This document shows, piece after piece, positions 26,309 to 47,986 of a stretch of DNA of 64,000 bases. Numbering within the stretch: the first letter of the stretch is position 1; every line of letters begins with the position of its first letter. The position numbers and the translations under genes are program-made. The DNA is taken from positions 8,034-72,033 of the forward strand of contig CP070837.1 of assembly GCA_020341815.1 (NCBI GenBank), written 5' to 3'. Origin of the DNA: Candidatus Omnitrophota bacterium (lineage in GTDB: Bacteria; Omnitrophota; Gorgyraeia; JAFGHF01). Below the pieces are notes generated by a model. It ran no database searches. It was given only the letters and a program-made list of their open reading frames with translations, and was not told the origin of the DNA.

Positions 26309-26383
26309 TCGGGACGGGCAGATTCGAACTGCCGACCTTCTGCTCCCAAAGCAGACGCGCTAGCCAAACTGCGCTACGTCCCG
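26309..26383 (-). tRNA. tRNA-Pro(UGG), CCA not encoded
   Basis: Acceptor CGGGACG/CGTCCCG, anticodon loop TTTGGGA, T-loop TTCGAAT; 4 nt upstream of tRNA-Arg. Confidence 0.8.
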
Positions 26384-26480
26384 TTCCAAAATACTGCCAA
26401 GCTTTGTGCTTTGGCAAGACTAATGCCATATAGCACTAGTCTACTTTTAAAAATCAACCATTGAAGTATTTTGGAACGGG
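26380..26480. mobile_element. MITE-like TIR repeat, family 1, copy A
   Basis: TIRs CCCGTTCCAAAATAC / GTATTTTGGAACGGG around a central palindrome ctaatgccatatagcactag; abuts the tRNA-Pro 5' end. Confidence 0.7.
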
Positions 26481-26564
26481 ATACGTCCCCATTCTGCAGA
26501 CATACCCTCTTCCAAAATACCACCACAGTTCTCTGATTATAGCTTAAAAACGGGCCTCTGTCCA

Positions 26565-32212: not shown

Positions 32213-32900
32213 CGAAATAGAAAACTTACAAAAGCTTACCGAAAATATTTTTCTTGTGCTTCCGCAAACCAATATTCTTGTTATCGATGACGACTCTCCT
32301 GACGGAACAGGAAGGCTCGCCCAAAGCCTGGCCGGGAAAAATCACAAAATTAAACTGATCCAGAGGGGCGGAAAATCGGGTCTGGGAAGCGCCTATATCC
32401 GGGGATTTAGATATGCCCTTGAGAATAACTATGACTTTGTCTTTGAGATGGACGCCGACTTCTCGCATAACCCGAAATACCTGCCTGAATTTCTTAAGCA
32501 GGCTACACAGTACAATCTTATCCTGGGTTCGCGTTATATTAAAGGAGGGGGTATTACAGAGTGGGGTATCCTGCGCAAGTTGATCAGTTACGCAGCCAAC
32601 CTTTACGCAAGGATAATTTTAGGTCTTCCCTATCGCGATTTAACCGGAGGGTTTAAATGCTATTCTCAAGCCGCCTTAAGGAACCTGGAATTAGATTCCA
32701 TTATCTGTGAAGGCTATGGATTTCAGATAGAAACTACTTACAGGATTTACCGCAAAGGCCTCAGCATTAAAGAAATCCCCATTGTCTTTAAAGGCAGGCG
32801 CAGAGGAAAATCAAAGATTTCCCGTAAGATCTGTTTTGAGGCATTCTGGAAGGTGCCCTTATTGCGCTTTCGGCGTATTTACCCCGAACCAAAATACTAA
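32181..32900 (+). CDS. polyprenol-phosphate mannose synthase (GT2, Dpm1/Ppm1-like)
   Basis: IIIPTYNEIENL...VIDDDSPDGT...EMDADFSHNP motifs. The last 6 codons and stop lie in the MITE. Confidence 0.8.
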   Translation: MQTLIIIPTYNEIENLQKLTENIFLVLPQTNILVIDDDSPDGTGRLAQSLAGKNHKIKLIQRGGKSGLGSAYIRGFRYALENNYDFVFEMDADFSHNPKYLPEFLKQATQYNLILGSRYIKGGGITEWGILRKLISYAANLYARIILGLPYRDLTGGFKCYSQAALRNLELDSIICEGYGFQIETTYRIYRKGLSIKEIPIVFKGRRRGKSKISRKICFEAFWKVPLLRFRRIYPEPKY

Positions 32901-32984
32901 TAACAATCAATCTTTAAAGTGAACTAGTGCCATACGGCATTAGCTTGCTATTAGTTTTGACTGTTGGAGTATTTTAGTTCGGGG
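32882..32984. mobile_element. MITE-like TIR repeat, family 1, copy B (inverted orientation)
   Basis: CCCCGAACCAAAATACT ... AGTATTTTAGTTCGGGG; sits between convergent ppm1 and rdgB and supplies both stop codons. Confidence 0.7.
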
Positions 32985-34835: not shown

Positions 34836-34913
34836 CCCGCCCTTCCTTTCCTCGTAATGCCAAGGTTTCGTCCCCGTCCTTCTGATGTTTTGGAAGGGCG
34901 GGGTTCATCTTTA
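34833..34913 (-). promoter_or_regulatory. intergenic stop-hairpin-GTG module, copy 1
   Basis: UGAACCCCGCCCUUCC...GGAAGGGCGGGGUG: 12-bp GC stem between the stop of the alpha subunit and the GTG of the beta subunit, with the AGGAAGG SD inside the 3' arm. Confidence 0.6.
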
Positions 34914-36429: not shown

Positions 36430-36538
36430 CCCGCCCTTCCTTTCTTCGTAATGCCATAGTTAAATTTTACTTTTGCCAAACTATTACCTTCGCCCATATC
36501 TATTATGCAATGCGTGGTGTTTGGAAGGGCGGGGTTCA
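36427..36538 (-). promoter_or_regulatory. intergenic stop-hairpin-GTG module, copy 2
   Basis: Same 22-nt 5' and 30-nt 3' conserved arms as copy 1, with a longer variable loop. Confidence 0.6.
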
Positions 36539-45221: not shown

Positions 45222-46892
45222 ATGCTTAAAAGACAATTATCTCAGCGCCGGGGCATGCTTTTATTTGTCCTGGTAATTTTTTCTCTGGCTGCGCTCTTTG
45301 TGAACCTGGAAAAAAGGAGCTTCTGGGAGCCGGATGAAGGAAGATATGCCGAGATATCCCGGGAAATGCTGGAGTCCGGCGACTGGCTTACCCCCCGCCT
45401 AAACTATATTAAACATCTGGATAAGCCTCCTATTACCTATTGGCTTATCGGCTCTTCTTTCAGGCTCTTCGGGCAGAACGAATTTGCCGGACACCTGCCG
45501 CTGGTTATTCTGGCCTTTGCAGGAGTGTTGGCCGTTTATTCCTTAGCCAAAGAGACGCAAGGTGCACGCACAGCATTCCTTTCGGCAATTATCTTAATCA
45601 GTACCCTGGGTTATCCAGCCTTGGCGCGGGTGCTTTCCACCGACATAATACTTAGTTCTTTCTGTCTCTTTTCTTATCTATTTTTTGTGCGAAAAAAATA
45701 TTTTCTCTTTTATCTTTCGCTGGCCTTGGGTTTCATGACTAAAGGGCCGATAATCCTTTTGCTTGTGCTTCTGCCCATCTTTATCTTTCTCATCTATACA
45801 AAACAAACATATATCTTTAAAGAAATGCGCCTTGTGTCTGGAGCAGTCATCTTTGCGGTCGTGGGACTGCCCTGGTTCATCTATCAAATACTTATTCACA
45901 AAGGCCTCAGTTACAATTGGCTCATGCAGCAAACTGTAAGCAGGATAGCCACCAGAGGCGAAGAACCCTTCTATTTCTTCGTTCCAGTATTAATCGGACT
46001 TTTCTTCCCCTGGATATTTTTCTTAAGCCCGGCCCTAAAAAGGTATCTCTCTTTCAAAAGGACATCGTTCGATAAAGAAAAGACATGGACCCTGCTTCTT
46101 TTCCTCTGGTTCCTGGTACCTTTTATTTTCTTCTCCTGTATCGGCAAAAAGCTGGTTCCCTATATTCTGCCGCTTTTGGCACCTCTGGCGGTAATAACGG
46201 GCCGTCTCTGGGATGAGACTATGGATAATCCCGCAATATTATCGGAGAAGTTTTTTTCTGTTTCCTATTATATCTTCCTATCGTGTAAGTCAATTATGTT
46301 AATAGCAATGCTCACTTTTCTCTATCGGGGCATTGATTACCAGCTCGATATCCCTGCGGCCCGTCCAAATATAATCGCGCTTTGCATAATATTGGCGGGT
46401 TCAATAACAGCAAGCGTATCTTTCTTCCGCCTAAAAAAACCTCAAGCGCTTTTCTGGACTGTAGCCTTAACTTCTGCGCTTTTCTTCCATACGGCAATAG
46501 ATGTACTGCCTAAGATAGAGGCGGATATCAGTAAATCCGTAAAGCCTCTGGCTCTAAAGATTAAGCAAGACTTAACACCAGAAGACAAAATAGTTAACTA
46601 CCGCTGCTTCCTGAAGAGCCTACCCTTTTATCTTTCTCGCCGCACAATAGTCATTGAGCGAAGCCGCCACTTAGACTTTGAAGAAAATGAGCACTGGCAG
46701 GATTATCTGCTCAAGGACAAAAATGACCTTTACAGGCTTTTATCTTCCAGAAAGACGCGCATCTTCTGCATTACCTATACCTGGGAATTTGAGAAGATTA
46801 AGGCGGAATATTCCGGGCGGATTTATTTATTGGGTAAGGCAGGAAAATATGTGCTCTTCAGCAATCAAATGAGGCCCAAACTTACGGAATAA
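45222..46892 (+). CDS. GT39/ArnT-family polyprenol-phosphate-sugar:glycosyltransferase (PMT_2)
   Basis: EPDEGRYAEISREML...KPPITYW motif; 12+ TM. Confidence 0.75.
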   Translation: MLKRQLSQRRGMLLFVLVIFSLAALFVNLEKRSFWEPDEGRYAEISREMLESGDWLTPRLNYIKHLDKPPITYWLIGSSFRLFGQNEFAGHLPLVILAFAGVLAVYSLAKETQGARTAFLSAIILISTLGYPALARVLSTDIILSSFCLFSYLFFVRKKYFLFYLSLALGFMTKGPIILLLVLLPIFIFLIYTKQTYIFKEMRLVSGAVIFAVVGLPWFIYQILIHKGLSYNWLMQQTVSRIATRGEEPFYFFVPVLIGLFFPWIFFLSPALKRYLSFKRTSFDKEKTWTLLLFLWFLVPFIFFSCIGKKLVPYILPLLAPLAVITGRLWDETMDNPAILSEKFFSVSYYIFLSCKSIMLIAMLTFLYRGIDYQLDIPAARPNIIALCIILAGSITASVSFFRLKKPQALFWTVALTSALFFHTAIDVLPKIEADISKSVKPLALKIKQDLTPEDKIVNYRCFLKSLPFYLSRRTIVIERSRHLDFEENEHWQDYLLKDKNDLYRLLSSRKTRIFCITYTWEFEKIKAEYSGRIYLLGKAGKYVLFSNQMRPKLTE

Positions 46893-46921
46893 AATGACGT
46901 AAGTTTGTTGGCCGAATATGA

Positions 46922-47026
46922 CCCCGTACCAAAAATACTTCAACAGTCAAAACTAAAAGCAAACTAATGCTATATGGCACTAGTTCACTTTTAAAAATCA
47001 ACCGTTGTTAGTATTTTGGTACGGGG
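46922..47026. mobile_element. MITE-like TIR repeat, family 1, copy C1
   Basis: CCCCGTACCAAAAATACT...AGTATTTTGGTACGGGG; between the GT39 gene and the rnpB 3' end. Confidence 0.7.
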
Positions 47027-47085
47027 TTAATTCGCACAGCGACTTATGTTCACTAGTGTTCCATAAGTCGTGTGTTCATTAAAGA

Positions 47086-47536
47086 GAGTAGAGCTATAAG
47101 CCGAGTTCTGTATTTGACGGCCATCCATCTAGTTTTGCCGTTACCGACAAAATCAATAGCGGTCAACCCGAAAGTGCTGACGAACCGGGTGAAGCTCGTT
47201 GCCATATAAGCATCCCTTCCTATTTAACCTTTCTCCGCGTAGAGATTACCTCTTTTCACCCTCTGCCCAGAAAAATTTTTCTGGATGAGTTGTTGTCTCT
47301 GTGGCTCTAATCCTATCCCGAACCAAAATACTTCAACAGTCAAAACTAAAAGCAAACTAATGCTATATGGCATTAGTTATGCCAAAAGTATAAAACTTAG
47401 CAGTATTTTGGTTCGGGACGATGGGCGTTACCCACTACGCTCACCCTTTGGAGCTCGGACTTTCCTCTCCCCCTGCTGTTTCGTTTTGCTTCGCAAAAGC
47501 GAAACAAAACGACAGGGGCAGCGACCATCCGCTCTA
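47086..47536 (-). ncRNA. rnpB: RNase P RNA (bacterial type A) carrying a MITE insertion in P9
   Basis: Minus-strand read: P1 AGAGAGUAGAGC/GCUCUACUCUCU, CR-I GGAAAGUCCGAGCUCC, P8 GUGGGUAACGCCCAU, CAGAGGGUGAAA...GGUAAUCUCUAC (CR-II/III), ACAGAACUCGGCUUAUAG (CR-V). Confidence 0.8.
47317..47417. mobile_element. MITE-like TIR repeat, family 1, copy C2, inserted inside rnpB
   Basis: CCCGAACCAAAATACT...AGTATTTTGGTTCGGG lying between P8 and the P10/11 strand, i.e. replacing/extending P9. Confidence 0.7.
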
Positions 47537-47554
47537 CTCTCTTACAAAGAACAA

Positions 47555-47986
47555 TTAATTTGATTTCAGGCTCGTATCAATTCTTGAATCAATGGCCTCG
47601 TTGGCAAGCCTGTCGGCCTCTTTATTTTCTTCCCGTTTGATTTGTCTTATTCTTAATCTATCGAAGCCTGTCTTCAAATGCAAAAATTGCTCATAATATG
47701 TTTTCAAATTGGAATTCTTAACCCTGTATTCCCGGTTCAATTGCTTAACCAGAAGTTCGCTGTCCGAATAGACCGCCACTTCACGAAGTCCAAGGATAAG
47801 GGCCTCCTGCAAGGCATAGATAAGGGCCGTATATTCGGCGGCATTATTGGAAAGCTCACCGATATATTTATAAAGCTGTTTTATCTTGCGGTTTTCTCCG
47901 TCCTTAATCACTATACCTATCCCTGCTTCTCCGGGATTGCCGCGGGCAGCTCCGTCAATATAAATAAAACACTCTTTTGCTTGCAT
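47555..47986 (-). CDS. rnhA: ribonuclease HI
   Basis: IYIDGAARGNPGEAGIG...NNAAEYTALIYAL...TDSELLV. Confidence 0.85.
   Translation of the reverse strand: MQAKECFIYIDGAARGNPGEAGIGIVIKDGENRKIKQLYKYIGELSNNAAEYTALIYALQEALILGLREVAVYSDSELLVKQLNREYRVKNSNLKTYYEQFLHLKTGFDRLRIRQIKREENKEADRLANEAIDSRIDTSLKSN

Follow-up and report, generated by a model that had tools for sequence, protein, structure and literature searches.

How can an essential ribozyme gene carry a copy of a dispersed repeat in one of its helices, and what becomes of the added helix? RNase P RNA combines a conserved catalytic core with peripheral helices that come and go between lineages. Views on how these helices arise, such as the accretion model (PMC12974513), come mostly from comparisons over deep evolutionary distances. 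We analyzed a 64,000-nt stretch of a Candidatus Omnitrophota genome (hereafter the window) in which the RNase P RNA gene, rnpB, contains a copy of a repeat termed family 1. In our judgment this is fairly probably a functional rnpB at its conserved locus, in which the tip of helix P9 was replaced by a mobile repeat that is tolerated and retained as an extension. Such a locus would catch the gain of a helix at short evolutionary range, with one hairpin family forming P9 here and P3 in another species while the core is constrained. It would also offer a concrete and testable mechanism for the birth of expansion segments in structured RNAs. Contigs and loci used for comparison are given by handles (L001 and so on).

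Identity and Architecture of rnpB

The whole 64-kb window was searched against Rfam with cmscan. One match to RF00010 (RNaseP_bact_a) was found; it scored 185.4 bits (gathering score, 100; E = 2.5e-58) and covered the full model (positions 1-367 of 367). An earlier, sequence-only reading of this DNA had recognized type A core elements on the minus strand at 47086-47536; the elements were confirmed and the coordinates were right, the covariance model extending the gene slightly to 47081-47540. The main features of the gene are as follows.

47081..47540, minus strand: rnpB (RF00010), class A architecture without P13/P14, 460 nt with inserts
47540-47531 and 47094-47085, minus strand: the two strands of P1, at the two gene ends
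47450..47467, minus strand: CR-I, the 5' strand of P4, GAGGAAAGUCCGAGCUCC (cmscan alignment)
47097..47111, minus strand: CR-V, the 3' strand of P4, ACAGAACUCGGCUUA (cmscan alignment)

The P4 core motifs CR-I (GAGGAAAGUCC) and CR-V (ACAGAAnnCGGCUUA) were aligned with high posterior probability, and P1/P2 closed as expected. The window RNA shares P1-P12, P15-P18, the P4 pseudoknot, and CR-I/CR-V with type A RNAs of RF00010, together with the GUAA loops capping P8 and P18. It differs from them in the absence of P13/P14, where 43 model positions are reduced to 1 nt (in the region of 47253-47261), in a 31-nt insertion in the P3 loop, and in P9, where 97 nt occupy the place of a 4-nt consensus loop; the P16/P17 region carries 17 extra nt. 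In the minimum-free-energy fold of the whole RNA, P1, P3, P8, P9 with its insert, P12, and P18 were all kept, and the insert formed an autonomous P9 arm.

P13/P14 were likewise absent from all Omnitrophota homologues examined. Because all of them share this loss, it is a lineage trait rather than damage. Type B and type C RNase P RNAs have also lost P13/P14 (PMC2858038). The type C RNA of Thermomicrobium resembles the window RNA in this respect but has P10.1 (PMC2858038), which the window RNA lacks.

Directly 3' of rnpB, a conserved imperfect hairpin, AAUGAACACACGACUUAUGG...CAUAAGUCGCUGUGC, was observed at 47030-47080 on the minus strand and again at L096:6668-6720. It is truncated in L094 and has no U-run; it may be a processing or termination signal of rnpB.

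A Family-1 Repeat at the Tip of P9

The sequence-only reading had further proposed that a 101-nt family-1 repeat stands in place of the short P9 hairpin. This was borne out by the cmscan insertion and by the repeat match, which together define the following features.

47313..47420, minus strand: complete P9, with the base CGUCC (47420-47416) / GGAUAG (47318-47313) continuous with the terminal stem of the element
47317..47417, minus strand: family-1 palindromic repeat (MITE-like) forming distal P9, 101 nt from CCCG to CGGG (profile match, E = 5e-29)

The insert runs CCCGAACCAAAAUACU...AGUAUUUUGGUUCGGG (103 nt if the flanking T/A are counted) and has a perfect terminal inverted repeat of 16-17 bp. 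Folded alone, it formed a hairpin with a free energy of -47.9 kcal/mol, which corresponds to z = -9.8 relative to dinucleotide-shuffled sequences. The long stem foreseen in the sequence-only reading was thus present, whereas its count of about 45 bp did not hold, the hairpin comprising 37 bp. A chance hairpin was excluded by the z-score of -9.8 and by zero chance matches.

The native base of P9 is retained in the window, as it is in L002, L003, and L087. With the native CGU/AUAG added to the element stem, P9 has about 20 continuous base pairs at its base and about 40 pairs in all. Because the ends of the element, CCCG and CGGG, coincide with native P9 stem bases, the element replaces the tip of P9 and does not merely sit in its loop. 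The boundaries of the element are accordingly ambiguous by 4-5 nt, over which its ends match the native stem. The covariance model placed the insert peripherally, in the P9 terminal loop, and left the catalytic core undisturbed. In the mechanism that we propose, the P9 tip would have been replaced by a 101-nt mobile palindromic repeat whose terminal inverted repeat prolongs the native P9 base, giving a coaxial extension directed away from the core.

A weak terminator-like motif, a minor concern for this mechanism, was noticed within the insert in rnpB sense (47378-47355, minus strand); in it, UGCUUUUAGU comes after a 9-bp stem that includes 3 G-C pairs. A stronger version is found in the family-1 copy downstream of the gene (46953-46994).

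We considered whether a repeat copy had been wrongly joined into rnpB during assembly. Short-read assemblies do break at the family-1 repeat: contig L001, from an independent Logan assembly (SRR14739666), covers the RNase HI gene and the 5' portion of rnpB and breaks off inside the repeat, 61 nt into the element. The same contig, however, reproduces the left junction between rnpB and the element. In addition, the two P9 junctions coincide exactly with complementary bases of the P9 stem, the source contig spans 1.55 Mb, and the analogous insertion into P3 (L093, described below) comes from an unrelated JGI assembly. We regard an assembly artefact as hardly credible.

P9 in Related Genomes

The gene directly upstream of rnpB served as a synteny anchor.

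47555..47986, minus strand: RNase HI family gene (Pfam RNase_H/RVT_3)

Orthologous rnpB genes were fetched via the conserved gene order, which is zinc-ribbon gene, RNase HI, rnpB, and ArnT-like glycosyltransferase, and P9 was compared between the invariant CAUCG(U/C) and (A/U)AGGAU. A genome-collection scan with an RNase HI alignment gave, among the matches listed, mostly distant genomes (best identity, 74%), and among these matches the RNase HI-rnpB synteny was common to dozens of genomes. P9 of the window and its relatives, with the RNase HI identity of each to the window, was as follows.

Window: reference; P9 is the 101-nt repeat
L002: RNase HI 94%; P9 is a different 36-nt hairpin
L003: RNase HI 76%; P9 is CCCGGACAUCCGGG, 14 nt
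L087: RNase HI 76%; P9 of 21 nt with a GAAA loop
L004 and L005: RNase HI 75% and 74%, respectively; P9 is a shared 36-nt hairpin
L094: RNase HI 73%; P9 of 25 nt
L095: RNase HI 73%; short P9 tip CUCACAUAUGUGGGG, 15 nt

The family-1 element was absent from P9 in every relative examined; the close relatives have short P9 tips. The P9 tip differed in every lineage, and a GNRA-type L9 occurred only in L087 and L093 among the loci compared. Because the tip varies in length from 14 to 36 nt among the relatives and L9 is usually not of the GNRA type, the P9 tip appears free to vary in this clade. This agrees with observations on mesophilic type A RNAs, in which the L9-P1 contact contributes little and L9 mutants complement an E. 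coli rnpB mutant, and with the natural P9 extension of Deinococcus radiodurans (PMC8457005). The insert would then be tolerated because the tip of P9 is unconstrained in this clade, and it is presumably neutral.

A native P9 expansion that seeded the other family-1 copies was also considered and judged unlikely, the expansion being absent in relatives and the copies lying in unrelated contexts in at least two organisms.

At about 60 of 80 loci (L005-L084), among the matches listed, RNase HI was directly upstream of rnpB, the latter being judged by CR-I and CR-V motifs downstream of the RNase HI match. Contigs with this pair are labelled Omnitrophota and also Bacillota, Nitrospirota, Chloroflexi, Actinomycetota, Patescibacteria, and others.

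Selection on rnpB

Over about 4.5 kb of coding DNA on the flanks, the window and L002 share 92.5-93.5% identity. The part of rnpB 3' of P9 showed 1 difference in 238 nt (99.6% identity), and two nearby tRNAs were 100% identical. With the divergence of the flanks used as the neutral rate, which was taken as conservative, neutral evolution of this part in both lineages would leave one change or none in 238 nt with a probability of about 2e-7; for neutrality confined to the window lineage, the probability is about 1e-3. Because rnpB 3' of P9 is nearly unchanged while the flanks have diverged by 7.5%, the gene is under purifying selection, a result that says little on the time since insertion if the insertion was very recent.

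These data bear on the possibility that the window gene is a pseudogene, that is, a disrupted copy in a cell whose RNase P is supplied by a second rnpB or by a protein-only enzyme elsewhere. The sequence surveyed is 64 kb of a genome of about 1.55 Mb, which leaves room for such a gene, and the possible weak terminator inside the insert would fit a disrupted copy. The window itself has one RF00010 match and no second, and the one match is full-length at 185 bits with its core intact. This explanation is also opposed by the near-identity of rnpB 3' of P9 (one change in 238 nt, with flanks diverged by 7.5%) and by a syntenic locus that is conserved in dozens of genomes among the matches listed. 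Because the match is full-length, the sequence is conserved, the locus is canonical, and L093 has an intact gene that relies on the element for P3, we consider a pseudogene improbable, with only a slim chance of being the right explanation. The view taken in the sequence-only reading, that a mobile element is tolerated inside an essential ribozyme, gains support from the intact core, the conserved locus, and the contrast between rnpB and its flanks. On this view, the Candidatus Omnitrophota genome would have one functional RNase P RNA gene, that of the window, and it would lie at the conserved locus.

Copies and Class of the Family-1 Repeat

BLAST, alignment, and a profile search gave four family-1 copies in the 64-kb window, including that in P9, where the chance expectation was none. 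The other three are listed below.

46921..47027, minus strand: second copy, oriented like the P9 copy, 54 nt past the 3' end of rnpB
32883..32983, plus strand: third copy, between convergent ORFs
26380..26480, plus strand: fourth copy, abutting and overlapping the 5' end of tRNA-Pro(UGG) (26309-26383, minus strand)

Five further true copies (L088, L089, L090, L092, and L093) were found in JGI metagenome contigs by a pattern scan; a match in L091 was a chance match and was discarded. No copy was present in about 320 kb of loci fetched by protein searches, mostly from Omnitrophota genomes. The termini of the family have the form CCCG(A/T)(A/T)CCAAAAUACU, and they gave no matches elsewhere in the 64-kb window beyond the short copies. 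All nine copies keep the hairpin, with compensatory double-sided changes in 7 of 33 consensus pairs, and the terminal stem pairs vary by copy (AA/UU, UA/UA, or UU/AA). Family 1 thus has a hairpin held by compensatory substitutions, as REP/RPE-like elements do.

Bacterial MITEs and REP-like elements (Correia, Nezha, and REP/BIME) are small, dispersed, mostly intergenic, and hairpin-forming, and have terminal inverted repeats. Family 1 shares with them its small size, terminal inverted repeats, many dispersed copies, and hairpin; it is short (101 nt) and non-coding, with a 17-bp perfect inverted repeat. As in MITEs, the copies are dispersed and differ in presence and absence among relatives: the P9 copy is absent from relatives, and the copy 3' of rnpB is absent in L002, which has no counterpart of a 213-nt stretch (46869-47081). 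Family 1 differs from MITEs and REP-like elements in that its termini match native stems at P9, P3, and the 5' end of tRNA-Pro and in that target-site duplications are inconsistent across the nine copies. Duplications were found at 32883-32983 (TTTA/TTTA) and 26380-26480 (TACG/TACG); the copy in P9, the one 3' of rnpB, and those in L088, L089, and L090 had none. The term MITE, used in the sequence-only reading, is therefore apt with regard to size, inverted repeats, copy number, and presence/absence, and only partly apt overall. Because there is no such consistent duplication and no autonomous partner is demonstrable, MITE is a working label here, and we prefer the more cautious term MITE-like palindromic repeat.

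The copy in P9 and the one 3' of rnpB lie 393 nt from each other and point the same way. They are 98% identical over a 54-nt stretch (46932-46985 and 47325-47378), while their other halves differ. The pattern suggests gene conversion between these two neighboring copies. If the two were to recombine, about 390 nt would be lost, and with them most of rnpB 3' of P9.

Family 1 as P3 and Other Hairpins in rnpB

The JGI contig L093 has the same gene order as the window, and its RNase HI gene is about 74% identical to that of the window at the nucleotide level. Its rnpB reads ...GGAUGGCCGC-[CCCGAACCAAAAUACU...AGUAUUUUGGUUCGGG]-GAGGAAAGUCC, with a family-1 element at the position of P3. This gene scored 204.4 bits, and the termini of the element form all 9 P3 pairs of the covariance model. 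The P3 copy of L093 and the P9 copy of the window are 84% identical and form the best pair between genomes. P12 is absent from the L093 rnpB as well.

P3 of the window is also extended, by a different sequence.

47467..47521, minus strand: extended P3, with the 39-nt palindrome GUCGUUUUGUUUCGCUUUUGCGAAGCAAAACGAAACAGC at 47475-47513

No other copy of this palindrome was found in the 64-kb window, which gives no grounds for classing the P3 extension as a dispersed repeat of this genome. The same palindrome is present in P3 of L002 (2041-2156), where a further 63-nt hairpin is nested in its loop, and the P9 tip of L002 (2204-2246) is a shorter version of it. Contig L086 ends inside the palindrome (L086:1672-1694). 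The P3 palindrome may have arisen by duplication within the gene, or it may be another small mobile hairpin.

Other relatives carry other hairpins. In L085, a relative at 79% identity, two tandem hairpins of about 40 nt with TCCCGAA...UUCGGGA ends lie between P10 and P11 (2058-2135), and a similar pair is found about 100 nt upstream of rnpB (L085:1832-1884). The rnpB of L004 has 81 extra nt in P12. Copies of the P12/P18 inserts of relatives were sought in the window, and none was found. Because L093 has family 1 as P3 and other relatives have other hairpins in P3, P9, P10/P11, and P12, insertion of hairpin repeats at rnpB helix tips is recurrent in this clade. Family 1 and other hairpin repeats have entered further peripheral helices of rnpB in relatives, and the insertion of mobile hairpins at helix tips would amount to an ongoing gain and exchange of peripheral structure in a ribozyme.

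One or two extra hairpins between P10 and P11 were also observed in L010, L012, L016, L021, L025, L044, L053, L055, L070, and L071. These hairpins of Omnitrophota recall P10.1 of type B and type C RNAs. With P13/P14 missing and extra P10-P11 hairpins present, the RNase P RNA of Omnitrophota may represent an undescribed structural subtype. A borderline c-di-GMP-I riboswitch (36.4 bits against a gathering score of 35) was observed upstream of a large gene of the sister strain, at L002:5227-5358; no corresponding match was reported for the window.

Fate of the P9 Extension

The sequence-only reading had expected the insert to be either retained as a giant P9 or processed. Most likely, the extension would be retained in the mature RNA as an expansion segment. 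The arm would persist as a neutral segment off the P8/P9 stack. Inserts of this kind provide natural variants for asking how much added helix a ribozyme tolerates; in practice, they break short-read assemblies at rnpB and lengthen the RNA well past the usual model length.

Alternatively, the duplex could be cut from the transcript, for example by RNase III, leaving two fragments joined by the remaining P9 stem and tertiary contacts. Intervening sequences of 23S rRNA are hairpin DNA at helix tips, variable among close relatives, and excised by RNase III. The P9 insert resembles them as an extra hairpin at a helix tip of an essential RNA that varies between close relatives, and this position lends the alternative some weight; excision is a feature of the rRNA case. 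With about 20 continuous pairs and 37 in total, the insert is a plausible substrate for a double-strand-specific nuclease. We know of no naturally split bacterial RNase P RNA. Bimolecular RNase P ribozymes can assemble from separate domain RNAs (PMC6783828). In L093, however, the terminal stem of the element is the only P3, so the RNA has to keep the base of the element at the very least. We consider excision unlikely for the window RNA.

It could also be argued that the long P9 has been co-opted to stabilize a specificity domain that has no P13/P14, as in D. radiodurans with its P9 extension and P9c pseudoknot. The examined Omnitrophota rnpB genes all lack P13/P14, many have a long P9 or extra P10-P11 hairpins, and the P9 extension of D. 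radiodurans is functionally important (PMC8457005). Moreover, both copies embedded in rnpB are transcribed in the orientation that gives the more stable RNA (-46.0 versus -39.5 and -51.2 versus -49.4 kcal/mol), although n = 2. On the other hand, the closest relatives manage with unrelated P9 tips of 14-36 nt, and the insert has the sequence of a dispersed repeat and is not a lineage-conserved RNA motif. A recruited function for the arm thus seems quite improbable, and retention as a neutral segment remains the reading that we prefer.

The D. radiodurans RNA is itself a precedent for a long P9, which is elongated there past the usual tetraloop in an active ribozyme (PMC8457005). That extension is a lineage feature which forms a pseudoknot with L12 and has L9 as an internal loop, whereas the extension in the window is a copy of a mobile repeat.

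Repeat DNA in a peripheral helix of RNase P RNA is already known, and the recurrence of mobile hairpins across helices is what the present case adds. STRR repeats inside rnpB of heterocyst-forming cyanobacteria were reportedly described by Vioque in 1997 (Nucleic Acids Res 25:3471). Repeats of this class are short tandem repeats of the heptamer type and are said to be located in P12. They share with the window element a genome-wide distribution and a position in a peripheral helix of a functional rnpB. They differ from it in being tandem short repeats, whereas the window has a single 101-nt inverted-repeat hairpin in P9, of a family that also forms P3 elsewhere. Rickettsia palindromic elements, of which 1 of 526 copies in R. 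bellii lies in the tmRNA gene (PMC1458961), are similar to family 1 as dispersed palindromes that survive in essential genes. They belong to another phylum, have another sequence, and are best known from in-frame insertions into proteins; a single family forming two helices of a ribozyme has not been described for them. Searches confined to open-access papers, and thus weak as evidence, yielded no report of a MITE-like element in rnpB, and open-access papers likewise yielded none of one repeat family forming different ribozyme helices across species or of Omnitrophota RNase P RNA.

Regularity of the Insertion Sites

Native stems of relatives can already carry the end sequence of the element. 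P9 of L003 is UCCCGG-ACAU-CCGGGA and P3 of L094 is CCCCG-GUUU-CGGGG, and it looks as if the element had replaced a loop and upper stem of this kind exactly. At tRNA-Pro(UGG) (26309-26383, minus strand), the last five bases of the element, CGGGA, are tRNA nucleotides 1-5, and a near-duplicate of the tRNA 5' end, the remnant GGGGACGUA, lies beyond the far side of the family-1 copy. The corresponding contig of the sister strain (L097) has no element; its spacer is different and unalignable, and its tRNA-Pro is divergent.

A second hairpin family in the window has outermost CCCG/CGGG ends like those of family 1.

34836-34902 and 36430-36533: second hairpin family, CCCCGCCCUUCC...GGAAGGGCGGGG

Each copy takes up exactly the short gap between two ORFs that run in the same direction. 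A related hairpin, CCCCGCCCUUUC...GAAAGGGCGGGG, occurs in L094 (1768-1828) at the site 3' of rnpB. There, the family-1 copy of the window and the L094 hairpin occupy orthologous positions and are both bounded by ACCCCG/CGGGGU, as if interiors had been exchanged between fixed stems.

Of the nine family-1 copies, four are within a stable-RNA gene or immediately next to one, and the copy in L090 lies inside a terminator-like hairpin. Non-coding DNA makes up only about 12% of the window, and the tolerant rnpB loops are a tiny part of it, so random insertion followed by selection does not seem enough to explain the pattern; the copies are few, and the window case was picked for its insert. We tentatively suggest, as a possibility about which we are more doubtful than confident, that hairpin elements of the CCCG...CGGG type home to, or recombine with, short G+C-rich hairpin stems similar to their own ends and rebuild the stem on insertion. 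The idea is based on the occurrence of the element in P9 in one species and in P3 in another, its overlap with tRNA-Pro nucleotides 1-5, and the different hairpins within identical ends 3' of rnpB. If it were true, stem-homing elements would be a dedicated source of expansion segments for stable RNAs. A partial family-1 end, GGUAUUUUGGAAGAGGG, was also observed further upstream of tRNA-Pro, at about 26503-26519.
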